NCBI GenBank assembly: GCA_016183305.1
Contig: JACPEW010000006.1
Coordinates: 2,317 to 66,316 of the forward strand
Source: Candidatus Daviesbacteria bacterium
GTDB taxonomy: Bacteria > Patescibacteriota > Microgenomatia > Daviesbacterales > UBA10151
Direction: 5' to 3'
DNA: 64,000 bases
Positions within the stretch are counted from its first letter, which is position 1, and each line of letters starts with the position of its first letter. Below the pieces are notes generated by a model that was not told where the DNA came from, did no database searches, and saw only the letters and a list, made by a program, of their open reading frames with translations. Below, in pieces: positions 1 to 35,798 of this stretch. A program made the position numbers and the translations under genes.

Positions 1-2
1 TG

Positions 3-158
3 CATGGTTCACTTTTACCTAAAAATCCTAAGTTAGCTGACTGGCTTCTACAAAAAGCTTTAGAAATAAAATATGGCAAACAAATTGAGCTTAAACCTTT
101 AGATGATACTCTAGAACTACAAGCTCACCAAAAAGCCATCTCAAGATTCAGCAAATAA
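3..158 (+). CDS. 3' end of unidentified CDS (start outside window)
   Basis: Frame open from window edge to TAA 156-158 (51 codons); no diagnostic motif. Confidence 0.3.
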   Translation, partial: HGSLLPKNPKLADWLLQKALEIKYGKQIELKPLDDTLELQAHQKAISRFSK

Positions 159-180
159 TCTGCTAAAATACACCTAGGAA

Positions 181-263
181 GCGGATGTGGTGAAACGGTA
201 TACACGATAGGTTTAGGACCTATTGCCCGCAAGGGCGTGGAGGTTCGATTCCTCTCATCCGCA
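181..263 (+). tRNA. tRNA-Leu (anticodon UAG)
   Basis: Cloverleaf by eye: acceptor GCGGATG/CATCCGC, anticodon arm ATAGG-TTTAGGA-CCTAT, long variable arm TGCCCGCAAGGGCGT, T arm GGAGG-TTCGATT-CCTCT, discriminator A. Confidence 0.9.
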
Positions 264-292
264 CTCTTACTATTTTCTTACTATTTAGCGAT

Positions 293-574
293 TTGACTTC
301 TGGTATAAAAGAGTTAGAATATCCTCGTCTAACTATGAATGATCCAGTAAACCCAGCAAGTCCTGAATTTGGACCGGGCGGTCCTGTCAGACAACCAGAA
401 ACTACTATAACAGCATCATCTGGTAGAACAATAATTTTTAATCAACACCCTGCGCCAAACACTGGCCCTATGCCACCTAGCGATCCAGCAACAATTATTG
501 AGGCAGGCAAAAGAGCCCTACCTCTGCCAGAAACGCGACGCCGGGCTGCTGAAGCAATCCAAGAAACTAAGTAG
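293..574 (+). CDS. hypothetical Pro-rich protein
   Basis: 93-codon ORF from track (TTG start, internal ATG at 335); no recognisable family. Confidence 0.3.
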   Translation: MTSGIKELEYPRLTMNDPVNPASPEFGPGGPVRQPETTITASSGRTIIFNQHPAPNTGPMPPSDPATIIEAGKRALPLPETRRRAAEAIQETK

Positions 575-615
575 ATTTCTGAAAAATTGGCTGAAAAGGT
601 GTAAAATATACACCC

Positions 616-1290
616 ATGAACACCTTTGGAACAAAAAATAGGATTAATCCCAAGAATATCCTGGGGGGTATGGGCTTTTTTGATGAAACTGGTTTTGAAA
701 AAGAGTCAGCCATGGTCTCTTCTGCAGTAGCCACTGTAGCCTCTGCTTCTAGCCAGGTGGTCAGTGGCTTTTTTGAAGCAGCTATCGGCCTGGGCCAAAA
801 TATCGGCGGAACTGAATCTAAACAGGAAGCAAACGGTAAATTCTCCAAAGGTTCTTTAAATAACTTTAATGATAAAGCCCGCTTTGAACAACTTCAGCAA
901 CAACAAACTGAAACAGAAAAGCAAAGAGCAGAAAAAGATAGAAAAACCATCTTCTTCCAGGCTCTTAAAGAAGACCAGCAAAGGGCTCAACAAGCTAAAG
1001 AAAAAAAGCTGGAAGAAGATGAGATAAATGATATTATTGCCAATTTACCGACAGAGCAAAAAAACAGGTTATTACACTACCAGGCAAGTTATAAGGACAG
1101 AAGTATTTACCAAAAAGCAGAACTTAGAAAGAAGCTGATTGAAGAACAAAAGAAAGCAGAAAAACAACAAAAAGAAGCACCCATCCCAAGTCCGGCTAAA
1201 CAACCTTCTGCTATGGAAGGCGCTTTTGAAGGCAGAAGCGGAGCCCAGGGCAGTGGTACCTCTAATTTATCTGCCCAAGCTGTAGGGTAA
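616..1290 (+). CDS. hypothetical Lys/Glu/Gln-rich (coiled-coil-like) protein
   Basis: 224-aa ORF, low-complexity charged central region; no family recognised. Confidence 0.45.
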   Translation: MNTFGTKNRINPKNILGGMGFFDETGFEKESAMVSSAVATVASASSQVVSGFFEAAIGLGQNIGGTESKQEANGKFSKGSLNNFNDKARFEQLQQQQTETEKQRAEKDRKTIFFQALKEDQQRAQQAKEKKLEEDEINDIIANLPTEQKNRLLHYQASYKDRSIYQKAELRKKLIEEQKKAEKQQKEAPIPSPAKQPSAMEGAFEGRSGAQGSGTSNLSAQAVG

Positions 1291-1308
1291 GTGTGCTAAA
1301 ATATCCCA

Positions 1309-1391
1309 GTGTGTCCTTGTCAAAAACTGTCATTTAGACAATTTTTGACAAGCGGTCTCCCTTGCCGGGTCAGACTCGGCTCCGGTCCGAT
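1309..1391 (-). repeat. R5 element copy 1 (TCGGACCGGAG ... GGGAGACCGCTT ... hairpin ... TTTTTGACAAGG)
   Basis: Reverse complement aligns block-by-block with 35799-35905; contains 16-bp hairpin CTTGTCAAAAACTGTC/GACAATTTTTGACAAG; abuts 5' end of tRNA-Val. Confidence 0.55.
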
Positions 1392-1468
1392 GGGCGGTTA
1401 GCTCAGTTGATTAGAGCGCAGCATTGACATTGCTGAGGTCGTTGGTTTGACTCCATCACCGCCCACCA
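1392..1468 (+). tRNA. tRNA-Val (anticodon GAC), CCA encoded
   Basis: Acceptor GGGCGGT/ACCGCCC, anticodon arm CAGCA-TTGACAT-TGCTG, T arm GTTGG-TTTGACT-CCATC, A73 then CCA. Confidence 0.9.
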
Positions 1469-1496
1469 TTGACAATCCGGTAAGAAATATCATAAT
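1469..1496 (+). promoter_or_regulatory. sigma70-like promoter (TTGACA-N16-CATAAT)
   Basis: TTGACA 1469-1474, CATAAT 1491-1496; predicted start a few nt before ATG 1506. Confidence 0.5.
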
Positions 1497-1505
1497 ATCA
1501 AAATA

Positions 1506-1565
1506 ATGATTAGATTTTTACAAACTTGTTGCACTACAACTATCCTTCTAAGGGAGGTTACGTAG
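1506..1565 (+). CDS. candidate leader peptide MIRFLQTCCTTTILLREVT (19 aa, 5 Thr, 3 consecutive)
   Basis: ATG 1506 to TAG 1563-1565; Thr codons ACT ACA ACT at 1533-1541; ORF ends inside the 5' strand of the antiterminator. Confidence 0.45.
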   Translation: MIRFLQTCCTTTILLREVT

Positions 1566-1622
1566 TGTAATTTTTGTAAAAATTTACACAAAGACAAACC
1601 TCCTCCAAAAGGAGGTTTTTTT
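1550..1622 (+). promoter_or_regulatory. alternative antiterminator/terminator structure (attenuator)
   Basis: GGGAGGTT (1552-1559) can pair with AACCTCCT (1597-1604), which alternatively pairs with AGGAGGTTT (1610-1618). Confidence 0.5.
1596..1622 (+). terminator. rho-independent terminator
   Basis: 9-bp stem AAACCTCCT/AGGAGGTTT, 5-nt loop, T-run through 1622. Confidence 0.7.
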
Positions 1623-1646
1623 GTGCTTTGAAAGGAGGTGATTTTC

Positions 1647-1832
1647 ATGAAAACAGAAATAGTAGCTGAAAGATTCCTTGGATCAGACATGAGCGATAAG
1701 GTGCGTTTGGCTGAACCAGCTGATGGTAATCCAAATAAACCACCACGCGTAATCCCATCTGATATGAGTAATCCTGGCAGATTATTCGGCGCAAAGGAAT
1801 GGGTTAATCCGGCGCTACCTATTACTAGGTAG
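1647..1832 (+). CDS. hypothetical small protein (61 aa)
   Basis: ATG 1647 preceded by AAAGGAGGTG SD at 7-nt spacing; no family recognised. Confidence 0.4.
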   Translation: MKTEIVAERFLGSDMSDKVRLAEPADGNPNKPPRVIPSDMSNPGRLFGAKEWVNPALPITR

Positions 1833-1908
1833 TTTTTCTGTAGTAATTGGGATGGATGCTAGCTGTCCCAATCTACCAAAGTAAGAAGCTATCTGATATA
1901 TTACAGAT

Positions 1909-3645
1909 ATGGATAATAAAGATTTAAATAATCTAAGACATTCCTGTGCTCATCTTTTGGCAGCTGCTGTTTTGGAACTGTGGCCAGATACTAAACTGAC
2001 CATTGGTCCTGCTACTCAAGATGGGTTTTATTATGATTTTGAGTTTGTAAAACCCATAACTGAAGATGGCTTACCCAAGATAGAACAGAAGATGAAACAG
2101 CTTTTACCCAGCTGGACCCGTTTTGAACACAGGGAAGTAACAGAACAAGAAGCAAAAGAATTATTTAAAGATAACTCTTATAAACTAGAACTAATTGAGG
2201 AAATAGCACAAAAGAAAGAACCAATTACTCTTTATAAATCAGGAAACTTTGAAGATTTGTGCAGAGGAGGGCATTCTGAAAATCCCAGCAAAGAAATTGG
2301 AGCTTTGAAACTATTATCTATTGCTGGGGCTTATTGGAGGGGATCAGAGAAAAATAAAATGCTTACCAGAATCTATGGCACTTGTTTTCCCACTAGAGAA
2401 GAACTTGATGAGTATCTTAATATGTTGAAAGAAGCTAAAAAAAGAGACCATAGAAAATTAGGAAAAGAACTGGACTTATTTATCTTCTCAGACTTGGTTG
2501 GTCCTGGGCTGCCTTTATTTACCCCTAAAGGCACTATCTTAAGGGAAGAACTGTTTAAATTCTCAGAAAGCTTGCAGCTGGCTAATGGTTATCAAAGAGT
2601 TTGGATTCCCCATATCACTAAGACAGATTTATATAAAAAAAGCGGTCACTGGGATAAATTTGGCGGTGAATTATTCCTGGTTAAAAGCCGGGAAACCAGT
2701 GATCAGCTTGTCCTAAAACCAATGAATTGCCCACATCATGTTCAAATCTATGCTTCCAAACAAAGGAGTTATAAAGAGCTCCCAGTCAGATATATGGAAA
2801 CTACCACCCAGTATAGAGATGAAAAAATGGGTGAGCTGTTAGGTTTATCCAGAGTCAGGTCTATTTCTATTGATGATTCCCATATCTTTTGTACCATGGA
2901 TCAGGTTGAAGAAGAGTTCAGAAAAATCATGGATATGGTCAAAACTATGTATAAAACTTTAGGGATGGAGTTTAAAGCCAGGCTCTCTTTTAGAGATTCC
3001 TCAGATAAGTTTCTGGGTGAGCTTAAAGATTGGCAAAAGGCCCAAGCAATTATTGAACAGGTGGCTAAAAATTTAGGAATTAATTATTTTATTGCTGAAG
3101 GAGAGGCTGCTTTTTATGGTCCTAAAATTGATATTTTAGTTATGGATAGTTTAGGACGCGAGTGGCAATGTGCCACTGAGCAGCTTGATTTTGTCCAACC
3201 TCAAAGGTTTGGCCTAACTTATATTGATGCAGATGGTAGCGAAAAAACTCCATTTATGATCCATAAAGCAATCTTGGGTTCAATAGAAAGATTTCTCTCT
3301 GTTTATATAGAACACACTGGGGGGGCTTTTCCTATTTGGCTTTCGCCTGTACAAGTACAAATTATACCCATTGCTGATAGGCACCAAAAATATGGACAAA
3401 AGTTACTCGAACAATTAAAGTCTGCAAATATTAGATCAGAGATTGATTCAAGAGCAGAAAAAATGCAAGCAAAAATAAGGGATGCCCAACTGCAGAAGAT
3501 CCCTTATATGTTAATTATTGGTGATAGGGAAGAACAAGATAATAAAACAGCTGTTAGAACCAGGGCAGGGCAGGATTTAGGAGCAATAGAGTTTAAAGAA
3601 TTTTTAACAAAAATTAAATCTGAAATTGAGTTTAAATCTTCCTGA
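1909..3645 (+). CDS. thrS: threonyl-tRNA synthetase, lacking the N-terminal TGS domain
   Basis: Starts in editing/SAD region (HSCAHLLAAAV); class II core and C-terminal anticodon-binding domain recognisable by eye. Confidence 0.93.
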   Translation: MDNKDLNNLRHSCAHLLAAAVLELWPDTKLTIGPATQDGFYYDFEFVKPITEDGLPKIEQKMKQLLPSWTRFEHREVTEQEAKELFKDNSYKLELIEEIAQKKEPITLYKSGNFEDLCRGGHSENPSKEIGALKLLSIAGAYWRGSEKNKMLTRIYGTCFPTREELDEYLNMLKEAKKRDHRKLGKELDLFIFSDLVGPGLPLFTPKGTILREELFKFSESLQLANGYQRVWIPHITKTDLYKKSGHWDKFGGELFLVKSRETSDQLVLKPMNCPHHVQIYASKQRSYKELPVRYMETTTQYRDEKMGELLGLSRVRSISIDDSHIFCTMDQVEEEFRKIMDMVKTMYKTLGMEFKARLSFRDSSDKFLGELKDWQKAQAIIEQVAKNLGINYFIAEGEAAFYGPKIDILVMDSLGREWQCATEQLDFVQPQRFGLTYIDADGSEKTPFMIHKAILGSIERFLSVYIEHTGGAFPIWLSPVQVQIIPIADRHQKYGQKLLEQLKSANIRSEIDSRAEKMQAKIRDAQLQKIPYMLIIGDREEQDNKTAVRTRAGQDLGAIEFKEFLTKIKSEIEFKSS

Positions 3646-3740
3646 AAAAAATTTTAATGATTAAAAATCAAACCATTGAATCTCAAGCCTGGTTTATGTT
3701 AGAATCTACCAAAGATTATATGACAAAGGAGACTGTCTAA

Positions 3741-4280
3741 CTGGCCAAGTTCTATCGTTTGAATGAACATATCCAAGCTGAAAAGCTTAGGGTAATTGAT
3801 TCCAAGGGGGAACAATTAGGCATCTTAACTAAAGCAGAAGCTTTAGGAAAAGCTAAGGAATTAGGGCAGGATTTAATAGAAATCGCCCCAAATGCTGACC
3901 CTCCTGTTGCCAGGATAACTGACTTTCAAAAGTTCAGGTATGAGGAAAATAAAAAGGAAAGGGCATCAAGGAAAGGTAATTCTGCAGGAGAATTAAAAGA
4001 ACTTTGGCTATCTCCCAGGATAGCAGAACATGATCTTCAGGTTAGGTTAAATAGAACTGAAGAATTTTTGAAAACAGGCCATAAAGTAAAATTAACAGTT
4101 AAGTTTAAAGGCAGGGAAATGGCTCACCAGGAAATAGGGTACCGTGTCTTGCAAGAAGCTTTAACCCTCTTGGGTGACAAAGTTGCGGTAGAAAAAGATG
4201 CCAAAATGGAGGGAAGAAAGCTGTCAATGATTGTAGCAAAAAACAAAGGAGTAAAATCAAATGCCGAAACAGAAAACTAA
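3741..4280 (+). CDS. infC: translation initiation factor IF-3 (probable CUG start)
   Basis: RLNEHIQAEKLRVID...PPVARITDFQKFRYE match IF-3. Frame is open back to CTG 3741, 9 nt after AAGGAG 3726-3731; the track start is TTG 3759. Confidence 0.85.
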   Translation: MAKFYRLNEHIQAEKLRVIDSKGEQLGILTKAEALGKAKELGQDLIEIAPNADPPVARITDFQKFRYEENKKERASRKGNSAGELKELWLSPRIAEHDLQVRLNRTEEFLKTGHKVKLTVKFKGREMAHQEIGYRVLQEALTLLGDKVAVEKDAKMEGRKLSMIVAKNKGVKSNAETEN

Positions 4281-4396
4281 CAAATCAATACTTAAAAGAG
4301 TGAAGATTACCTCAACTGGTAAACTATTAAGAAAGCACCAGTTTGGTTCAGGCCACCTTAAAAGCAAAAAGATTAAGAAAGGTGATTGGACTTTAA
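4261..4396 (+). CDS. rpmI: ribosomal protein L35 (short; frame as given runs on into rplT)
   Basis: MPKQKTNKSILKRVKITSTGKLLRKH is the L35 N-terminal signature. No in-frame stop before the rplT ATG; TAA 4394-4396 lies in the +1 frame. Confidence 0.7.
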
Positions 4397-4743
4397 TGGC
4401 TAGAGTTAAAAGAGGGTTTGTTGCACACAGAAAACATAAAAAGGTTTTAGAACTTACCAAAGGCCACAGGGCTGGCAGAAGCAAGCTTATTAAAGAAGCA
4501 AAATCATCTCTCTTGCATGCAGGAGCTTATGCTTTTGCTGGCAGAAAACTTAGAAAACGTGATATGAGAGCCCTTTGGATTACTCAGCTTGGAATTGCAG
4601 TAAAAAATGAAGGCTTAAGCTATTCTAAGTTTATTTCCCAACTCAAAGCAAAAAATATCAACTTAGACAGAAAAATCTTAGCAGATTTGGCTGTCAATAA
4701 TCCTGATGACTTTAAAAAAATTATCACCCAAATCAAAAGTTAA
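4396..4743 (+). CDS. rplT: ribosomal protein L20
   Basis: MARVKRGFVAHRKHKKVLELTKGHRAGRSKL; GGTGA SD-like 8 nt upstream. Confidence 0.92.
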   Translation: MARVKRGFVAHRKHKKVLELTKGHRAGRSKLIKEAKSSLLHAGAYAFAGRKLRKRDMRALWITQLGIAVKNEGLSYSKFISQLKAKNINLDRKILADLAVNNPDDFKKIITQIKS

Positions 4744-5464
4744 ACCTTCCCATAAAGTTATCTTAGCAGTCGGAGCCCATCCTGATGATATTGATATTGG
4801 TTATTCAGGTTCCATAGCTAAATGGACAGAACAAGGAGCAGAAGTTTATTATTTAGTCTTAACTGATGGCAGCAAGGGCTCAGAAGACCCTCATATCTCC
4901 AATAAAGAATTAACTCAAATAAGACAGGCAGAACAACAAGCAGCAGCTGATATTTTGGGAGTAAAAAAAGTGTACTTTTTAAACTTTGTTGATGGGGAAC
5001 TGGAAAATACTCCTGCTTTAAGAAAACACATAATAAAAATTATCCGTCAAATTAAGCCTAATACAGTAATTTGTTCTGATCCAACTTTTTACTATGATAC
5101 GCACCGTCATTTTATAAACCATCCGGATCATAGGATAGCAGGGGAAGCAACAGTTGATTGTGTTTATCCTTTTGCCAGGAATGCCAGGACTTTCCCAGAA
5201 CTTCTAGCAGAGGGTTTGCAGTCTCATGTGGTAGAAGAACTGCTGCTGGTTAACTTTACTAAAGCTACTTACTTTATAGATATTAGTAAAACAATAGAGA
5301 AAAAAGTTACTGCTATATCAGCCCATAAAAGCCAGTTTAATGATATAAAAAAGTTTACTGAAATGATTAAACAAATGAGTTCCTTAATGGGTAAAAAAGC
5401 TAAGCCTAAGAAATTAAAGTATGCTGAAGGCTTTATCAGAATCCTCCTCCATCAATCTAGTTAA
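4706..5464 (+). CDS. PIG-L/LmbE family N-acetylglucosaminyl deacetylase-like protein
   Basis: AHPDDIDIG and HPDH motifs; start uncertain (overlaps rplT by 38 nt as drawn). Confidence 0.7.
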   Translation: MTLKKLSPKSKVKPSHKVILAVGAHPDDIDIGYSGSIAKWTEQGAEVYYLVLTDGSKGSEDPHISNKELTQIRQAEQQAAADILGVKKVYFLNFVDGELENTPALRKHIIKIIRQIKPNTVICSDPTFYYDTHRHFINHPDHRIAGEATVDCVYPFARNARTFPELLAEGLQSHVVEELLLVNFTKATYFIDISKTIEKKVTAISAHKSQFNDIKKFTEMIKQMSSLMGKKAKPKKLKYAEGFIRILLHQSS

Positions 5465-5562
5465 CCTAACGTGTTGTTCAAGCAATACAGTATTTCTGTC
5501 AGGATTCCAGTCTTCAACACCCTCATTTATCATAAGGCGCTTAGTGTGCTAGAATTGAGCTT

Positions 5563-6603
5563 GTGGAAGAAAAAATTTCTCAAATTCAAACTGAATATTT
5601 AGAACAAATCCAGCAAGCTCAAAGTTTAAAAGAGCTGGATGAGATTTTTTTAGGGCTATTTGGTAAGAAAGGCCAGCTTGATTTATTACCAAAAGAGTTT
5701 GGCAAACTTTCAATAGAGGAAAGGAAGAAAGTTGGGCCTTTATTCAATTCTGCTAAGCAGAATTTAGAGCAAGCTATTGAGAGAAAAAGAGGGGAAGTCC
5801 GCGGAGAAAGTTACAAAAAGCTTGCAAACGAAAAGCTTGATCTGTCTGATACTAAATTAATAACAAGGAAAGGCCATCTCCATCCTGTTACCCGGTTAGA
5901 AAACGGGGTTGTAACTTTATTTAAAAAACTAGGTTTTACCCAATACGGTGCTCCTCATATTGACAGCGAAGAATATAATTTTGAACTCTTAAATATCCCG
6001 CAAGGCCACCCAGCCAGGGATTTATGGGATACTCTATATATAGACCCACATAACTTAAAAGTCAGTCCAGGAGAATTACTGCTTAGAACTCATACCTCAA
6101 ATGCCCAAGTTAGATTAATGAAGGAATTTAAGCCTCCTATCAGAATGATGATTATTGACCGCTGTTTTAGATATGAAAATGTTGATGCCAGACACGAGCA
6201 TACCTTGGACCAATTTGAAATTGTTTATATAGACAAAGGTGTTAGTATGGCTAATTTGCAGTATTTATCAGAGTATTTTTTTCAAGGCATCTTAGGCAAG
6301 GATATAAAAGCAAGGCTAAGACCAAAATATTACCCTTTTGTTGAACCAGGAGCAGGGGTGGATGGTCTTTGTATTTTCTGTAAAGGTAAAGGCTGTAAGG
6401 TTTGTGGAGGAATAGGCTGGTTAGAACTGGCAGGAGCAGGTATGATTCACCCACAGGTTTTAAGAAATGGGGGGATCGACCCAAATGTTTATTCCGGAAT
6501 TGCCTGGGGCGCAGGCCCGGAAAGAATGGCCATGTTGAAATTCGGTATAGAAAATATCCGCTCATTTAAAAGTGGTGATCTAAAAATATTGGAGAAATTT
6601 TGA
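5563..6603 (+). CDS. pheS: phenylalanyl-tRNA synthetase alpha subunit
   Basis: GHPARD, FRYENVDARHEH, CxxC-x4-CxxC knuckle, GAGMIHPQVL; GTG start. Confidence 0.93.
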   Translation: MEEKISQIQTEYLEQIQQAQSLKELDEIFLGLFGKKGQLDLLPKEFGKLSIEERKKVGPLFNSAKQNLEQAIERKRGEVRGESYKKLANEKLDLSDTKLITRKGHLHPVTRLENGVVTLFKKLGFTQYGAPHIDSEEYNFELLNIPQGHPARDLWDTLYIDPHNLKVSPGELLLRTHTSNAQVRLMKEFKPPIRMMIIDRCFRYENVDARHEHTLDQFEIVYIDKGVSMANLQYLSEYFFQGILGKDIKARLRPKYYPFVEPGAGVDGLCIFCKGKGCKVCGGIGWLELAGAGMIHPQVLRNGGIDPNVYSGIAWGAGPERMAMLKFGIENIRSFKSGDLKILEKF

Positions 6604-8371: not shown

Positions 8372-8731
8372 ATGTTTCTTAAACTCACTCCTGAGCAGGC
8401 TCAAATTCTTGATAAATTGCTTTCAAGCGGAGATTATAGAGGATTTGTCTCTTCGTTAATAGATCAAGTGATGGATGATAATAAGATATTAAGTGAGGGT
8501 GTCCGTAGGACTACTAAAGATAACATGTTTCAAGCTCTAGCAAGAGAATATCTAACGCAGAAACTTCAAAGTTTACTAAGGTTCAGTTTAGATATAGACA
8601 ATTTTGCACTACTTAGAAAAATGCTTGAAGAGTTTGATCGGGCAAGATTAGAGGTTCCTTTGGAAATGCGGTTAATGATCAAAAGCGTTGAATCACTTCG
8701 TAAATTACAGTGCTACAGTAACTCCTATTGA
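8372..8731 (+). CDS. hypothetical protein
   Basis: 119-aa ORF, helical-looking; no family recognised. Confidence 0.4.
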   Translation: MFLKLTPEQAQILDKLLSSGDYRGFVSSLIDQVMDDNKILSEGVRRTTKDNMFQALAREYLTQKLQSLLRFSLDIDNFALLRKMLEEFDRARLEVPLEMRLMIKSVESLRKLQCYSNSY

Positions 8732-11263
8732 GGTTGAAAAAGTCCCACCATTATTATCTTCTAATGTAACTGTAATAGTATGAGAACCTTTATCTCCCTC
8801 TGGAAACTCCACACGTAAGGCAAACTGGCCTGAGGTTTGAGTAGATTTTTGAGCCCCATCAATTAACCAGGTAACTTTTTTAACTCCAGCAGGAGAATTT
8901 ACAGAAGCTAACACATCAAAAACTCTAGGCACATTGGCCCCGTTATTAACATTAACAATCTGAATAGCTCCGCCACCACCAGCAGTAAAACCCGGAATAC
9001 CAGAACAGCCTTTTGTTACACTAACTAATCTTGCATCCGGCGCTGTTAAAACCCACTGGTCTATTCCTATTTGCCATTTATCAGCTCCTGTAGGATCATC
9101 TTCTTTCAAAACTATCACATCTTTTTCCTCATTATCCTCATTATCATTGGCTAACCTGTGAGGATTGCTTTTGCAAACCTTTTGGCGTTGATAAGCGCTT
9201 GACTCTCCCTTAGGCTCTGTCCCCACAATAAAATATTCTTTCCTGGTAGGGGAACTACTGTGTGGCTTACCATTCATTAACCCATCAACTTCAACTTGGA
9301 TAACATTATCTGGTTTTTGGAAAGGCTCATTTTGCTTACCCTGTAAAGCAGCCACCATAATTTTATTCCAAATAGGTGAGGCTCCTGTGACTCCTGAGGC
9401 TACTGTTGAACTCATATCAGAATTATCATTGTTACCAACCCAAACTCCTACCGCAGCAGATAATGTGTAACCCACAGCCCAGTTATCTTTCTTCTGATCA
9501 GTGGTACCAGTTTTTACAGCTACAGTTTTACCTGGTATATTTAAAATAGAATTTGATCCAAAAGCTGCAGTCCTTGCCCCATTATCAGACAAAATATCAG
9601 AAATTATATATGCAATCCCAGGCTCCAAAACTTTTTTACCCTCTGACTGCCTAAACTCAAAAAGAGTTTTACCTTTACTATCTGTTACTTTCAAAATAGA
9701 GATAGGATCAAACTGACGGCCATTATTGGCAAATACTCCATAAGCAGAAACTAAATCCAATAACCTAACCTCCCTTCCTCCCAAAACTAAGCTTAAACCA
9801 ACTGAAGAAACATTTTCTGGGATAGGCTCCCAGGTAGTCAGTCCCATCCTAAATCCTAAATCCATTACATCCTTCACTCCTACTAAAGCTAAATTTTTAA
9901 CTGCTGGGATATTGTATGAATTACCCAAAGCATACCTCATCTGGACTGGCCCCCTAAACTGACCATCGTAGTTTACCGGAATATAAGAGGGCTTATCACC
10001 ACCAGGGAATTCTGTCTTAACATCAATATAAGTTTGGTTTGCAGTATAACCTTTTTCCAAAGCTTTAGAGTAGGCAATAGGTTTGGTAGCAGAACCTGGT
10101 TGCCTGGGGCTAATTGCCACATTAACATTTGGTTCAAAAGTACAACTATCTCCTTCTATGCAACCCTCAGGCAGAGAATCTCCAAAATAATCTTTGCTTC
10201 CTACCATAGAAAGAATCTGGCCTGTTTTAGGGTCTAAAACCAAAGCTGCAGCATTCCCAACCTTAGCTGAAGCCAAACTGTCAACTTCTTTTTTAACAAT
10301 TTCTTCAGCCTTTTTTTGCAAGTCATAATCTAAAGTGGTAGTTACTCTTAAGCCTCCGCCTTCAACCATTCTGCTGCCAAATTGTTCTATTAGTTTTTCT
10401 TTAACATACAAAACAAAATGAGGGGCTTTAAAACCTTGTTCGCTTTTGCTGGTTCTGTAAGTCAACTGCTCTTCTACAGCAACTTTGGCTTGTCCTTTAG
10501 TAATATATTTATCTTCTGCCATCCTGTTTAAAACTTCTTTTTGTCTTACCCGGGCAAGCTCAGGACGGGTACCATAAGGGGAATAAACTGAAGGCATTTG
10601 GGGTAGTCCAGCCAGTAGACTGGCTTCAGATAAATCTAAATCTTTAGCAGATTTCCCAAAATATAAATTAGCTGCTGCTTCAATCCCATAAGCAGTCCCT
10701 CCATAAGGAATCTCATTAAGATACATCTCTAAAATCTCATCTTTGCTGTAAGTCCGCTCAACTTGGATAGCTAAGATAAATTCTTTGAGCTTTCTGGTTA
10801 AAGTCCTTTCTCCGGAAAGCAAAGCATTTTTAACCAGCTGCTGGGTTAGGGTAGAACCTCCTCCTTCAACCTTACGGTGAACTACTAAATCAAAAACTGC
10901 CCTGCCAATACCAACAATAGAAAAACCTCCATGTTTATAAAAATCCTTGTCCTCAATTGCCAACGTGGCTTCTTTCACATAGTCAGGAACCTCTGAAAGC
11001 TTTACAGGAGTCCTGTTTTGTTCATGGTAAATATCATAAAGTAACTCCCCATTCTTATCATAAATTTTAGTAGCCTGGGCTATTTCCCTGTTAGTTAAAT
11101 CAGAAGGGGAGGGGATTTGGGTAGCAAAAAACACCACAGCGCTAAAAAGCAGAAGCAAAAAACCAACTACCCCTATTAAAATCCCAGTAGATAAATTTGA
11201 TAAGAGTTTAAACTTCCAAAGCTTTCTGCTTTCTTTTCTAACCCTCCAAGAACCATGGACCAT
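8705..11263 (-). CDS. class A penicillin-binding protein (PBP1A-type transglycosylase/transpeptidase) with C-terminal extension
   Basis: GT51 motifs EDKDFYKHGG, GGSTLTQQ; transpeptidase SATKP, SYN, KTGTT; N-terminal TM. Confidence 0.92.
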   Translation of the reverse strand: MVHGSWRVRKESRKLWKFKLLSNLSTGILIGVVGFLLLLFSAVVFFATQIPSPSDLTNREIAQATKIYDKNGELLYDIYHEQNRTPVKLSEVPDYVKEATLAIEDKDFYKHGGFSIVGIGRAVFDLVVHRKVEGGGSTLTQQLVKNALLSGERTLTRKLKEFILAIQVERTYSKDEILEMYLNEIPYGGTAYGIEAAANLYFGKSAKDLDLSEASLLAGLPQMPSVYSPYGTRPELARVRQKEVLNRMAEDKYITKGQAKVAVEEQLTYRTSKSEQGFKAPHFVLYVKEKLIEQFGSRMVEGGGLRVTTTLDYDLQKKAEEIVKKEVDSLASAKVGNAAALVLDPKTGQILSMVGSKDYFGDSLPEGCIEGDSCTFEPNVNVAISPRQPGSATKPIAYSKALEKGYTANQTYIDVKTEFPGGDKPSYIPVNYDGQFRGPVQMRYALGNSYNIPAVKNLALVGVKDVMDLGFRMGLTTWEPIPENVSSVGLSLVLGGREVRLLDLVSAYGVFANNGRQFDPISILKVTDSKGKTLFEFRQSEGKKVLEPGIAYIISDILSDNGARTAAFGSNSILNIPGKTVAVKTGTTDQKKDNWAVGYTLSAAVGVWVGNNDNSDMSSTVASGVTGASPIWNKIMVAALQGKQNEPFQKPDNVIQVEVDGLMNGKPHSSSPTRKEYFIVGTEPKGESSAYQRQKVCKSNPHRLANDNEDNEEKDVIVLKEDDPTGADKWQIGIDQWVLTAPDARLVSVTKGCSGIPGFTAGGGGAIQIVNVNNGANVPRVFDVLASVNSPAGVKKVTWLIDGAQKSTQTSGQFALRVEFPEGDKGSHTITVTLEDNNGGTFSTSIGVTVAL

Positions 11264-19417: not shown

Positions 19418-20467
19418 TTAAGCCTTAGTTTTTATCCTAAGCTTCCTATAATTTTCTAATAATTTAATTCCTCCTAAGACAAAATCCCTAAACAGGGGAG
19501 GGTACTTTTTATAGTAGTGTTTCTTATAAAAAATCTTCATAGCAGTGACTCCATAAATTGCAGTTTCTAATTTAGTTTCTTTTGGAACAGTAGTTAATGC
19601 TGTAGTCCAAAGCCCGGAAGAAGAACCTTTGTAATGGATTATTTTTACCTCCGGGTAATAATAAATCTTCCAGCTTTTTTCTTTTAAAGAGTAACAAAAT
19701 TCTATATCCTCACCATTCCAAAAATAATCTGTATTCCACCATCTTATTTGTTCTCCAGCAATTTTCCTTACCATCAAAAAAGCCCCTGTTAAGGAGTCAA
19801 TCTCATGGGCTTTATTAATATCTAAGTAAGAAGCTGTATAGCCAGAAAAAAGAGAGGATTTAGGAAAGATTTTAGACAGCCCGCTAAAGTAAGCAAAAGA
19901 ATTCCAGGGAGTAGGGAAACCTCTATGACAGGAGTAATCTAATCTTCCATCAGGCAGCTCAACCCTGCAAGTTAAGGCTCCAATATCAGGATCTGACAGT
20001 AACTTTTCTAAGGATTTTTGAATAGCATGATCAACAATAATAGTATCTGGATTTAAAAACAAAACCACTGGAGCTTTAGCAAATTTTACCCCCACATTAT
20101 TCCCAGCAGAGAAACCTAAGTTCTCCTTGTTTTCAATAAGCTGTACCACCCTATCACTCTTAATTTCTTCTTTGTCATACTGAGCTCCATTTTTGTCATT
20201 CTGGTTTGTCCAAAATCTTCCCTTTCCCCTGTCATTCCCGCCCGCTCCGCGGAGCGGGCGAAGGCGGGAATCTATACCAATAACTCTATATTTTCCCTTC
20301 ACAGCTTCTACAGACCCGTCAGAGGAAGCATTATCCACCACAATTACCTGCCACCTGTCTAACTTATCCTTACTTTGAAAAATTGAGTCTAAACATTTAA
20401 GCAATAAATCCTTAACATTGTAGTTAAGGATAATAATAGAAAGCTCTGGAGTCTTTAAATTTGTCAT
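19418..20467 (-). CDS. GT2 family glycosyltransferase carrying an R2-derived insertion
   Basis: LSIIILNYN, DNASSDGS, ENLGFSAGNN, EDIEFC; ~35-aa low-complexity insert between them. Confidence 0.8.
   Translation of the reverse strand: MTNLKTPELSIIILNYNVKDLLLKCLDSIFQSKDKLDRWQVIVVDNASSDGSVEAVKGKYRVIGIDSRLRPLRGAGGNDRGKGRFWTNQNDKNGAQYDKEEIKSDRVVQLIENKENLGFSAGNNVGVKFAKAPVVLFLNPDTIIVDHAIQKSLEKLLSDPDIGALTCRVELPDGRLDYSCHRGFPTPWNSFAYFSGLSKIFPKSSLFSGYTASYLDINKAHEIDSLTGAFLMVRKIAGEQIRWWNTDYFWNGEDIEFCYSLKEKSWKIYYYPEVKIIHYKGSSSGLWTTALTTVPKETKLETAIYGVTAMKIFYKKHYYKKYPPLFRDFVLGGIKLLENYRKLRIKTKA
20174..20272 (+). repeat. three tandem R2 units inside the GT2 CDS
   Basis: GTCATACTGAGC.., GTCATTCTGG..AAAATC, GTCATTCCCGCCCGCTCCGCGGAGCGGGCGAAGGCGGGAATC; translated as ...SRLRPLRGAGGNDRGKGRFWTNQNDKNGAQYDK... 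Confidence 0.75.
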
Positions 20468-33704: not shown

Positions 33705-35798
33705 ATGAATTTAAAAACTCCTTTATCCAGTTTAACTGGAATTGGCCTAGGGCTTAATTTTAAGCTTAAAAGGTTGAACTTAATTACCATTGAGGATTTA
33801 GTCTATTATTTTCCTTTCAGGTATGAAGATTTTTCTAATAATACCTCTGCTTTAGAAGCTAAAATAGGGGAGTCTGTTACCCTGCAGGGTGAAATTTGGT
33901 CTATTCAAAACATTTATACCAGGTCCAGGAAAATTATTACTAAAGCTATTTTTAATGATGGCACCTCACCTATAGAGCTAACCTGGTTTAACTCATCCTG
34001 GCTAACAAAACAAATTAAAACAGGGGACAGACTGCAAATCTCAGGAAAGATCAGTAAATATAAAAACAAGCTTTCCATCATAGCCCCGCGATGGGAAAGG
34101 CTTGACAGCGAAAAACAGCTTCCCACATCGGAAGTGGGAACGCAGATTCATACAGGCAGATTGGTACCTGTTTATCCTGAAACAGAAGGTTTATCTTCTA
34201 AATGGCTAAGAACTAAAATTTCCCAAACCTTACCTCATATTTTAAATCAAATAGAAGATTCCTTACCTGATGATATTAGAAAAGCAATGTTGCCTTTAAC
34301 AGAGGCTATACAGCAAGTCCATTTTCCCAAAAACTGGCAAGAGGCAGAAAAAGCCAGGGAAAGGTTAGGCTTTGATGAGCTGTTTTTTATCTCCTTAGCT
34401 ACTCAAAAAGCCAGGTTAAATTGGCAACAGAAACCTTTGGTTAAACCCTTAAAAATAAATTCTACAAAATTAAACCAGTTTATAAACAAGCTGCCCTTTA
34501 AATTAACTGCTGCCCAAGAAAAAGTCTTACAAGATGTAATAGCTGATTTAAAGAAAAACCAGCCAATGAACAGGTTAATCCAAGGTGAAGTAGGATCTGG
34601 AAAAACAGTAGTGGCTGCAATTATTGCTTACCTAACTTATCTTAATGGCTTAAAAACACTATTCATGGCTCCGACTGAAATCCTAGCTTTCCAACATTTT
34701 GAGACTCTTAAGAAATTCCTTGAACCATTTGGAATTACAATGGGGATATATACAGGGAGCAAAAAGGATTTAGTGACTAGTGACAAGAGTCAAGAATCAA
34801 GAAAGAAACCCCCTCACTTGACTCTAGCGGCTAGCGGCCACCCCGATACTATAATTGGCACTCATGCCTTACTTTCACCCAAATTAAACCTGGAAGATAC
34901 CGGGCTAATTATAGTAGATGAGCAACAACGCTTTGGAGTGGGACAAAGAACTGTACTTAGATCCAAAGCCAGAGTCCCACACTTTTTAACCATGACTGCT
35001 ACCCCTATCCCTAGGACTATTGCCTTGACCATTTATGGAGATTTAGATATGTCTGTAATCGATGAGTTGCCAAGAGGACGCCGGATGGTCAAAACCTATG
35101 TGGTGCCAGAAAAGAAAAGAGCTGATTCATATAAATTTATTGCCAAAAAAGTAAAAGAGGGCGGTCAAGCCTATATCATCACTCCTTTAATAGAACCCTC
35201 AGAAACTTTAGCCACTGTTAAAGCAGTTAAGGTAGAGTTTGAGAACTTAAAAAAGGTTTTCCCTGATTTAAAACTAGGCTTGCTTCATGGCAGGATGAAA
35301 GGAGCAGAAAAAGCTCAAGCAATCAAAAGCTTCCGTTTGGGACAAACAGATATTTTAGTTTCTACTTCTGTAGTTGAAGTTGGAATGGATAATCCCAATG
35401 CCACAATTATAGTTATTGAAGGAGCAGAAAGGTTTGGCTTGGCCCAGCTTCATCAACTAAGAGGCAGGGTAGGAAGAGGCTATAAAGAGTCTTTCTGTTT
35501 GCTTTATACCTCTAATTCTTCAATTGATGAGGGCAGAAGACTAAAGTATCTAGAAACTACTTTTGATGGTTTAAGATTGGCAGAGCTGGATTTAAAAATC
35601 AGAGGTTCAGGACAAATCTTTGGTACTGCCCAGTCAGGCAGGTTTGAGCTTAAAATAGCTTCTTTTTCTAACCTAAGCTTACTAGAAAAAACCAAAGATG
35701 CTGCTTTTAAACTACTCTCTTCAGATCCAGGTCTTGACAAATACCCTGTAATCAAGGCAAAATTACAGGATATCGCATCAGAAGTGATGCCTGATTAA
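33705..35798 (+). CDS. recG: ATP-dependent DNA helicase RecG
   Basis: Wedge/OB N-terminus, GEVGSGKT, DEQQRFGV, TATPIPRT, HGRM, QLRGRVGRG; start set at ATG 33705. Confidence 0.92.
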   Translation: MNLKTPLSSLTGIGLGLNFKLKRLNLITIEDLVYYFPFRYEDFSNNTSALEAKIGESVTLQGEIWSIQNIYTRSRKIITKAIFNDGTSPIELTWFNSSWLTKQIKTGDRLQISGKISKYKNKLSIIAPRWERLDSEKQLPTSEVGTQIHTGRLVPVYPETEGLSSKWLRTKISQTLPHILNQIEDSLPDDIRKAMLPLTEAIQQVHFPKNWQEAEKARERLGFDELFFISLATQKARLNWQQKPLVKPLKINSTKLNQFINKLPFKLTAAQEKVLQDVIADLKKNQPMNRLIQGEVGSGKTVVAAIIAYLTYLNGLKTLFMAPTEILAFQHFETLKKFLEPFGITMGIYTGSKKDLVTSDKSQESRKKPPHLTLAASGHPDTIIGTHALLSPKLNLEDTGLIIVDEQQRFGVGQRTVLRSKARVPHFLTMTATPIPRTIALTIYGDLDMSVIDELPRGRRMVKTYVVPEKKRADSYKFIAKKVKEGGQAYIITPLIEPSETLATVKAVKVEFENLKKVFPDLKLGLLHGRMKGAEKAQAIKSFRLGQTDILVSTSVVEVGMDNPNATIIVIEGAERFGLAQLHQLRGRVGRGYKESFCLLYTSNSSIDEGRRLKYLETTFDGLRLAELDLKIRGSGQIFGTAQSGRFELKIASFSNLSLLEKTKDAAFKLLSSDPGLDKYPVIKAKLQDIASEVMPD
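34116..34145 (+). repeat. R1 REP hairpin inside recG
   Basis: CAGC TTCCCAC ATCGGAA GTGGGAA CGCAG; reads QLPTSEVGTQ. Confidence 0.8.
34773..34841 (+). repeat. R3 heptamer arrays inside recG
   Basis: GTGACTA GTGACAA GAGTCAA GAATCAA GAAAGAA ... CTTGACT CTAGCGG CTAGCGG CCAC; reads VTSDKSQESRKKPPHLTLAASGH. Confidence 0.7.

Follow-up and report, generated by a model that had tools for sequence, protein, structure and literature searches.

A threonine-codon leader with alternative terminator and antiterminator pairings upstream of thrS in Candidatus Daviesbacteria

A 64-kb stretch of DNA from an uncultivated bacterium of the candidate phyla radiation (CPR), Candidatus Daviesbacteria, was analysed for the element that lies between a tRNA-Val gene and thrS. 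The whole stretch is called the window, and all positions given are window positions. Judged from its sequence, its folds and its relatives, the element probably is a four-segment ribosome-mediated transcription attenuator which reads the charging of tRNA-Thr and works as described below. An earlier interpretation of the same letters, made from the DNA alone (the sequence-only reading), had proposed ribosome-mediated attenuation keyed to Thr codons, and the comparison with relatives and with a wider module family supports it. The strongest argument for the codon run as the sensor, at the level of sequence, is that leaders with other codon runs precede genes for the matching amino acids. CPR bacteria have tiny genomes and most of them depend on hosts for amino acids. 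To our knowledge, almost no gene regulation has been characterised in them.

Architecture and folding of the leader element

The element starts with a sigma-70-type promoter (1469-1498, + strand) composed of the -35 box TTGACA (1469-1474), a spacer of 16 nt and the -10 box CATAAT (1491-1496). The sequence-only reading had seen this promoter; it matches the consensus at 11 of 12 positions and is the top-scoring site in 1-6000. When read as TTGACA-N18-TAATAT, with the -10 box at 1493-1498, it matches at 10 of 12. The CCA end of tRNA-Val(GAC) (1392-1468, +; found with ARAGORN; Rfam tRNA 62.8 bits) directly abuts the -35 box, which had been missed earlier. The leader open reading frame (ORF) encodes MIRFLQTCCTTTILLREVT in 19 codons from ATG 1506 to TAG 1563-1565 (+) and has no Shine-Dalgarno (SD) sequence. 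Five of its 19 residues are Thr, encoded by ACT 1524, by the consecutive ACT-ACA-ACT at 1533-1541 (1533, 1536 and 1539) and by ACG 1560; the Thr-rich peptide with three Thr codons in a row, as first noticed, was borne out by the sequence check.

Four segments could be assigned (all +). Segment 1 (1511-1551) holds the Thr codons together with Cys codons and is the 5' arm of a 1:2 hairpin in the minimum free energy (MFE) fold. Segment 2 (1552-1571), which is GGGAGGTT (1552-1559) with an extension, pairs with segment 1 or with segment 3, and in the latter case the antiterminator encloses a small AU hairpin (1566-1590), as seen in the fold constrained with a ribosome on the Thr codons. Segment 3 is AAACCTCCT (1596-1604) with AACCTCCT (1597-1604) inside it; identified by terminator scan, folds and alignment, it forms the 5' arm in the terminator and the 3' arm in the antiterminator and, in addition, resembles an anti-SD. 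Segment 4 (1610-1622) consists of AGGAGGTTT and T7 (1616-1622), forms the 3' arm of the terminator and contains an SD-like GGAGG (1611-1615). In the terminator scan, the stem 1596-1604/1610-1618 had 9 bp with 4 GC pairs and a loop of 5 nt, followed by the T7 stretch, and the core stem amounted to -11.8 kcal/mol. The three segments, the 9-bp stem and the T-run all lie where the sequence-only reading had placed them. The stop codon TAG 1563 is located 4 nt past GGGAGGTT of segment 2, close enough for a terminating ribosome to mask segment 2. The intrinsic terminator sits between the leader ORF and the structural genes, an arrangement kept in 14 Thr-class elements. The three-segment pattern occurred once in the 64-kb window compared with 0.00 expected occurrences (100 shuffles).

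A scan of the whole window against Rfam at the gathering score detected nothing but three tRNAs. In E-value mode, Phe_leader (RF01859) scored 34.6 bits against a gathering score of 55 and Trp_leader (RF00513) 26.4 against 41; these sub-threshold scores are a likeness in shape and not family membership. Thr_leader (RF00506) had no match in the window at E <= 10, and the T-box (RF00230) had none at the gathering score or at E <= 10.

The RNA of 1500-1630 folded with -47.8 kcal/mol compared with -20.7 ± 3.0 kcal/mol for shuffled sequences (z = -8.9), and without a ribosome it was predicted to form the 1:2 hairpin plus the terminator. The MFE fold of 1500-1595 (-29.9 kcal/mol, z = -6.9) contained a long hairpin at 1511-1586 with the Thr codons in its 5' arm and segment 2 in its 3' arm. 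In these predicted folds, it supplies the 'segment 1' of a classical attenuator, which was absent from the sequence-only reading. The same Thr-arm/segment-2 hairpin was predicted in 13 out of 13 related elements folded (ribosome-free RNA up to segment 3).

Ribosome footprints were simulated by masking the covered bases and refolding the RNA. Whichever of the three consecutive Thr codons the ribosome was placed on, GGGAGGTT was unpaired and available. When the Thr codons were masked in nascent RNA ending at 1609, the 2:3 antiterminator formed around the small AU hairpin (-16.8 kcal/mol) and 1552-1559 paired with 1597-1604, a pairing incompatible with the terminator. Placed at the stop codon instead, a ribosome covered segment 2 and left segment 3 free for the terminator; so did the 1:2 hairpin in the absence of a ribosome. 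Both states of the original proposal, a stall at the Thr codons freeing the antiterminator and a ribosome at the stop codon masking it, were reproduced in these models.

From the pairings seen in sequence, folds and comparisons, we infer the following course of events. The -10 box ends 7-9 nt before ATG 1506, so that a transcript start at or within ~3 nt of the AUG is predicted; transcription from the promoter at 1469-1498 would begin there and the 19-codon leader would be read leaderless or nearly so. If no ribosome arrives, segment 1 (1511-1551) would pair with segment 2 (1552-1571), segments 3 and 4 with each other, and transcription would stop at 1616-1622. If Thr-tRNA is plentiful, the ribosome would reach TAG 1563 and cover segment 2, and again the terminator would form. 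If Thr-tRNA is scarce, the ribosome would stall at ACT-ACA-ACT (1533-1541) and hold segment 1, leaving GGGAGGTT to pair with AACCTCCT as soon as the latter is made; the terminator would be blocked and transcription would continue. The read-through RNA would expose the unpaired GGAGG of segment 4 for ribosome loading 7 nt before the start of a mini-ORF, and would carry a 61-aa ORF and, beyond a weak hairpin, thrS.

Conservation upstream of thrS in related genomes

Around thrS, 75 species-level genome loci were fetched (loci carry L numbers) and searched on the same strand as thrS by an ORF-plus-terminator scan, a pattern search and the covariance model R1. Eight other species-level CPR genomes (L001, L005, L006, L022, L033, L039, L052 and L067) and four metagenome contigs (L100, L118, L188 and L189) have a Thr leader with the same three segments upstream of thrS. 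The bins of the genome loci are labelled Daviesbacteria, Levyibacteriota, Saccharibacteria, Nomurabacteria, unclassified Patescibacteria and, in two cases, Gammaproteobacteria. The leaders contain 3-7 Thr codons in frame and encode MNKFSQTCSTTTTTLNKGGFVV (L001), MIRLPQTCCTTPIPQREVL (L033), MKFIFSFANFCCTTITIPSQVGFVV (L067, including ..FCCTTITIPS..), MNVKLYTTCTETTSS (L039, including ..YTTCTETTSS), MKKQTTTITTAL (L005), MVIVNQFVSTTTTTAL (L006), MLVLASVNTTTTTTTPSMGGFVTS (L052) and, as a partial peptide, ..SGTITTTTPKLEVVSERL (L022).

By their sequences, the leaders of L033 and L001 appear plainly homologous to the one in the window: frame, Thr codons and stop position are kept, while most other codons have changed. 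L067 and L039, among others, are likewise in-frame homologues, and in all of these the stop codon adjoins segment 2 and both the 2:3 and the 3:4 pairings are retained. The sequence-only reading had suggested looking for exactly this, a Thr run and both helices conserved before thrS in relatives, and the search returned it. Measured from the first base of the segment-2 core, the stop codons of the relatives range from 4-7 nt upstream to 21 nt downstream. A small hairpin of different sequence occupies the same place in L033 (TTTGGT-AAAA-ACCAAA) and in L067 (TTTGGA-CTAA-TCCAAA).

For the analysis of covariation, 14 Thr-class elements were aligned with the three segments as anchors. Ten of them match the search pattern, which fixes the cores, and covariation can thus only come from the flanks and from the four pattern-independent elements L001, L033, L067 and L022. 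For the antiterminator helix 2:3, 86.3% of the cells were paired compared with 78.8 ± 2.1% after shuffling (reached in 0 of 500 shuffles), with a covariation score of 0.290 compared with 0.173 (0/500). The values for the terminator helix 3:4 were 86.4% compared with 83.7 ± 1.0% (the observed value was reached by 8 of 500 shuffles) and 0.158 compared with 0.125 (24/500). Five pairs of helix 2:3 change on both sides, one position being GC in five sequences and UA in five, and sliding the partner columns lowered the pairing to 44-62%. At a segment-3 C which pairs with a segment-2 G, segment 4 has a mismatching T in four of five sequences; it is the antiterminator, and not the terminator, for which this C is kept. 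The core of L022 differs (CTTGAGGTTGTTT / AAACGACCTCAAG / GAGGTCG) and preserves both pairings, with a helix 2:3 of 13 bp. These covariation counts are small, and they come from an alignment that had been fitted to the structure. RNAalifold on a first alignment (A2) had returned only the invariant terminator core and no covariation, an uninformative result since the search pattern fixes this core, and A2 was replaced by the anchored alignment.

The genes between attenuator and thrS are mutually unrelated. They comprise the 61-aa orphan in the window, ORFs of 65 and 76 aa, a DUF2000 protein, an unknown together with a creatininase-family protein and an unknown together with an M20 peptidase; there is none in L052, and the element directly precedes thrS in L052, L100, L118 and L189. 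The idea that the small ORFs between attenuators and synthetase genes form one family was refuted by an all-against-all BLAST.

The order tRNA-Val, attenuator, thrS is shared by the window, L001, L033 and L039. The hairpin with its T-run could accordingly be taken for the terminator of tRNA-Val or the end of a small RNA, with the ORF and its Thr codons arising by chance: the tRNA ends at 1468, no other terminator occurs before 1596, and short ORFs abound in AT-rich genomes. Yet tRNA-Val is on the opposite strand in L067 and L052, and the search of the fetched flanks of L005, L006 and L022 revealed none, so that the element is not simply a tRNA-Val terminator. The conservation of frame, Thr codons and stop position amid changing codons, the three-segment pattern expected 0.00 times in the window and the match between other codon runs and their downstream genes also speak against chance, which leaves this explanation with hardly any probability.

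Some further thrS loci deserve mention. L017:3874-4000 (Patescibacteria BroJett037) has a leader MKKLRIAFTTTTTTTP with seven Thr directly before thrS and a CCCC-AUAA-GGGG hairpin at its stop codon; a terminator was not recognised, and the locus may hold a variant without one or one that acts on translation. L037:83-266 (Daviesbacteria) contains a leader-like ORF MITMQILTYTETTSS close to that of L039 without segments 2-4 and looks like a decayed attenuator relic before thrS. The ThrS proteins of L052, L067, L100, L118 and many Saccharibacteria loci (L045-L060) are N-terminally truncated (~400-490 aa). They align from about residue 160-180 of the window ThrS and appear to be without most or all of the N-terminal editing region.

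Codon runs, leaderless translation and the mini-ORF

Metagenome contigs were scanned for GGAGGTT-N10-40-CCTCC-N3-9-GGAGGTTTTT without regard to neighbouring genes, which gave at least 120 loci. Among the matches listed, short ORFs ending at or just inside segment 2 carry runs of differing amino acids, and every downstream gene that could be named fitted the run before it. Thr runs precede thrS (L100, L118, L188, L189), Phe runs pheS (L124, L177, L098, L147, L146, L087, L154), a Lys run lysS (L170) and a Tyr run tyrS (L141), while Met runs are followed by metG (L110, L184, L187, L140) or a SAM hydroxide adenosyltransferase (L150). Biosynthetic genes lie behind Cys runs (cysK-type enzymes or a CBS/CGL fusion; L079, L145, L101, L161), Ser runs (SerB-SerA or SerA-like; L123, L091), F/Y/W runs (DAHP synthase; L102, L080) and an Ile/Thr run (aspartate kinase; L132). 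In the thrS loci, model R1 additionally detected Ile leaders before an ilvA-like gene and aromatic leaders before aroB/aroA-like and chorismate-mutase-like genes (both in L003 and L004) as well as a weak Phe leader before pheS (L005), the genes being judged by eye from their N-termini. A run before a gene for a different amino acid was not seen among the matches listed and the thrS loci. L095, L130, L164, L172 and L174 stayed unassigned. A cognate gene behind each codon run is the outcome which codon-specific ribosome stalling predicts. Plain counts of amino-acid runs had been intended as a control and were not used as evidence, as Leu, Ser and Arg runs dominate for trivial reasons. The tail of the window leader, ..REVT before the stop, recurs as ..REV(L/F)(A/T) before the stop in Met-run leaders (e.g. 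L143, L178 and L127), which indicates that the cassette was re-coded and not invented anew each time.

The nine different codon runs also bear on the proposal that the leader RNA is bound by tRNA-Thr in a T-box-like manner or by ThrRS in operator mimicry, with the ORF being irrelevant. These are the two described modes of thrS control, and L002 (3820-4000) and L071 (3261-3393) have T-box-like GGTGGAACC motifs followed by a terminator upstream of thrS. A Thr-specific binder does not explain nine runs, though. The window has no T-box match, T-boxes at the gathering score were absent from the 15 loci scanned, and no specifier loop or anticodon-arm mimic was evident, albeit without a dedicated mimic search. 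The AAGGGTGGAACCA of L002 was dropped as a T-box at 13.9 bits compared with a gathering score of 93. Direct binding is consequently given next to no weight. L002 and L071 may represent a switch between leader peptide and divergent T-box.

Several neighbours of the module are of interest in themselves. The Pro run of L172 is located before an ArgE/DapE-type M20 deacylase (1036-2193, -) and such an enzyme is also found behind the Thr-run leader of L006 (2734-3786); both may be amino-acid-releasing salvage enzymes under a matching sensor. In L124 (648-2453, -), L146 (4008-5792, -), L087 and L154, pheS is fused N-terminally to an AlaX-like (alanyl-tRNA editing) domain, an unusual combination. The pattern was also present in human-gut contigs (L081, L085, L090, L094, L103, L108, L115, L122, L131, L157, L163 and L176), where a 45-aa ORF (MVFQRGDSSMRWNNTDSG...) without an amino-acid run stops just before segment 2. 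This family looks like a different element that matches the pattern by coincidence.

The window leader is probably translated leaderless, given its promoter geometry. The same distance between -10 box and AUG was found in L039, L083, L100 and L189; the recognisable -10 boxes of Thr-class leaders mostly end 6-11 nt before the AUG, and no SD was detected in the Thr-class leader ORFs inspected. Of the 58 genes in the window, 24 are preceded at 5-10 nt by a -10-like hexamer (9.4% at random ATGs) and only 13 by an SD, which makes it probable that leaderless translation is common in this Daviesbacteria organism. The box often reads TGnTATAAT-N6-ATGG, e.g. at the genes 8705-11263 (-), 33705-35798 (+) and 19418-20467 (-). 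There are precedents for such sensors. In Deinococcus deserti, leader peptides are translated from transcripts beginning at the AUG and are predicted to attenuate tRNA-synthetase genes (e.g. cysS) and amino-acid biosynthesis genes (PMC4007540). In mycobacteria, leaderless polycysteine small ORFs (sORFs) are a precedent for control by sequestration of the ribosome-binding site (bioRxiv 10.1101/834739).

A mini-ORF, GTG CTT TGA (1623-1631, +), starts exactly 7 nt after the GGAGG of segment 4. An ATG or GTG follows segment 4 by 5-10 nt, usually exactly 7, in 44 of 69 leader-bearing modules; 31 of these 44 start mini-ORFs of up to 12 codons and seven start the real gene. A function of segment 4 as SD accounts for the SD / anti-SD / SD character of the three segments, and antitermination would then free a site for ribosome loading. 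From its sequence, the window element is assigned to a portable module of a sensor ORF and an SD-like / anti-SD-like / SD-like triple. These figures could also mean that the switch is mainly translational, with the 3:4 hairpin hiding the GGAGG and the T-run being incidental, for which the mycobacterial sORFs are again a model. Set against this, the T-run is invariant (T6-T9 are usual though the pattern required only T5) and is shared by the pattern-independent finds L001, L033, L067 and L022, and in the window and many other loci the SD serves just a mini-ORF of 2-10 codons. A chiefly translational switch is thus improbable; the two modes are not exclusive, and the transcription attenuator favoured here already includes SD release. 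Whether one cassette forms a general amino-acid-sensing device of CPR/Patescibacteria, which couples antitermination to SD release and a re-initiation mini-ORF and is re-coded for at least nine amino acids, is a more tentative matter, to which somewhat less than an even chance is assigned.

Control of thrS and comparison with known systems

Downstream of the attenuator, the order noted from the letters was correct: an SD (GGAGG, 1634-1638), the 61-aa ORF (1647-1832) as first cistron and thrS (1909-3645; all +). The 61-aa ORF has no Pfam family and no tblastn homologue in the 75 thrS loci, and its sole database match is itself (hypothetical protein HYU93_00880 [Candidatus Daviesbacteria bacterium]), which ruled it out as a conserved threonine-linked partner. 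It contains two SDMS motifs (LGSDMSDK and IPSDMSNPGR). An ORF of 54-64 aa at the same place in L067 (2666-2830) has IPSDMSEQGR and YVSDMSEEARR and shows a weak likeness to it; neither of the two matched a database family. A terminator-like hairpin (1814-1839, +; 8 bp, 3 GC, followed by TTTTCTG) lies at the end of the 61-aa ORF. ThrS itself (578 aa, from the ORF list) is 74% identical to the Daviesbacteria ThrS of L001, and its closest relatives come from metagenome-assembled genomes of Daviesbacteria and Levyibacteriota (68-74% identity). Read by eye, its N terminus seems to begin at the editing domain without a TGS domain. The thrS gene has no SD, and the 20 nt upstream resemble a -10 box. 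An extended -10-like box, TG-a-TATATT (1894-1902, +), is located 6 nt before the ATG and probably is thrS's own promoter for a leaderless mRNA, going by this spacing.

Several observations weigh against the attenuator as described, in addition to the limits of the covariation mentioned above. With the Thr codons masked, the terminator is still the favoured equilibrium structure of the full-length RNA, so that antitermination has to be decided kinetically, as in classical systems. The run of Thr codons is short, three in the window and two plus one in L033; conservation extends to the neighbouring Cys codons, though these are within a paired arm, and L181 has the module before thrS with just two scattered Thr codons. 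Translation of the leader is deduced for an ORF without an SD. As to thrS, its -10 box TGnTATAnT is conserved, usually 6-7 nt before the ATG (also in L039, L037, L001, L006, L067, L118, L189 and L033), a -10-like box is found between terminator and thrS in L118, L189 and L052, and the hairpin at 1814-1839 may be a partial barrier before thrS. This own promoter is the main doubt about how strongly the attenuator acts on thrS in the window.

The attenuator could hence be real without controlling thrS here, gating the mini-ORF and the 61-aa ORF or nothing useful, with the synteny merely inherited. The fixed and conserved -10 box, the leaderless-type geometry common in the window, the intervening hairpin and the missing SD for internal initiation at thrS all fit this explanation. 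By contrast, the Thr module stays before thrS across several CPR-labelled lineages although the intervening genes are wholly different, it directly precedes thrS in the four loci named above, and Met, Phe, Lys and Tyr versions precede their own synthetase genes with the same -10 arrangement. An attenuator uncoupled from thrS is therefore considered unlikely, albeit the most credible of the alternatives. The sequence-only reading had named a -10 box of thrS's own and a 61-aa ORF unrelated to threonine as findings that would speak against the link. Such a box is present and conserved and the ORF is an orphan unrelated to threonine, while the conserved association of the element with thrS stands; the link in the window thus rests on this association and not on an obvious single transcript. 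Given a basal leaderless-type promoter of thrS itself, the most likely role of the attenuator is to contribute an inducible share beyond the constitutive expression. The odds that thrS expression in this genome depends on it to a major extent are only slightly better than even. Coupling through the mini-ORF, as in L118 and L005, is one possible route by which the SD-less thrS could be translated from read-through RNA.

Two features lie just upstream of tRNA-Val. An inverted repeat, TTGTCAAAAA...TTTTTGACAA (1316-1352), contains TTGACA on both strands and may be a promoter of the tRNA or an operator. A protein of 209-224 aa without a Pfam family (616-1290) has a syntenic counterpart in L039 (1817-2446) and the sequence MNTFG..K..INP.NILGGM..., with a middle part rich in Lys, Glu and Gln.

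If the proposed mechanism is true, the charging of tRNAs would be read via the ribosome and this principle reused for many synthetase and biosynthesis genes. The cassette GGAGGTT .. AACCTCC .. GGAGGTTTTTTT-RTG would have given rise to copies re-coded for nine or more amino acids, would fill the role of the Firmicutes T-box for thrS, metG, pheS, lysS and tyrS, and would make leaderless-type genes translatable from read-through RNA. Going by the searchable literature, no system for sensing amino acids at the RNA level has yet been described in CPR, and this would be the first. The motif could help to annotate CPR regulons and genes of unknown function: a gene that follows a Thr, Met or Pro leader would be a candidate for the supply of that amino acid.

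Control of thrS has been described as operator mimicry in E. coli and as T-box regulation in Firmicutes, beside which the element would be a third, independent solution. No thrS leader peptide and no leader-peptide attenuator in CPR/Patescibacteria was described in the searchable literature, and priority is uncertain. The earlier claim of a different solution for thrS holds to that extent; for other synthetase genes, attenuation by leader peptides was known before.

The element resembles E. coli pheST and the thr, his, trp and leu leaders in its short ORF with a run of cognate codons, in the alternative 1:2, 2:3 and 3:4 pairings with an intrinsic terminator and in the position of the stop codon, at which a terminating ribosome would cover segment 2. 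The pheST operon is also the precedent for synthetase control by a leader peptide. The window element differs from them by the lack of sequence homology (no Thr_leader match and a Phe_leader score below gathering), by a leader without SD that is probably leaderless, by its CPR host, by thrS as the target and by a terminator arm which doubles as the SD of a mini-ORF. The leaderless leaders of D. deserti likewise are predicted to act on synthetase genes but belong to another phylum, and the accessible part of that report describes no SD / anti-SD / SD module (PMC4007540). The mycobacterial sORFs are likewise leaderless sensors in which a stalled ribosome remodels the downstream RNA, and many loci share one amino-acid signal (a 'ribulon'), which is counted as a likeness to the module family. 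They sense Cys only and act on translation without an intrinsic terminator (bioRxiv 10.1101/834739), whereas the CPR module is reused for at least nine amino acids and the window has a hairpin with a T-run. Leader-peptide attenuators with terminator and antiterminator were also predicted before synthetase genes in Streptomyces (trpS and leuS; PMC1262725) and Bacillus (hisS paralogues; PMC2965389). These are examples of regulator switching between T-box and leader peptide and concern other amino acids and other phyla, without a sequence relationship to the window. The thrS T-boxes of Firmicutes have the same target gene and respond to uncharged tRNA-Thr with antitermination, but sense it by direct contact between RNA and tRNA, while the window element, in which no T-box was detected, would do so through the translating ribosome. 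The type of mechanism is therefore known; new here, going by the searchable literature, are the probably leaderless leader, the SD within the terminator, the position before thrS and the reuse of one cassette for many amino acids.

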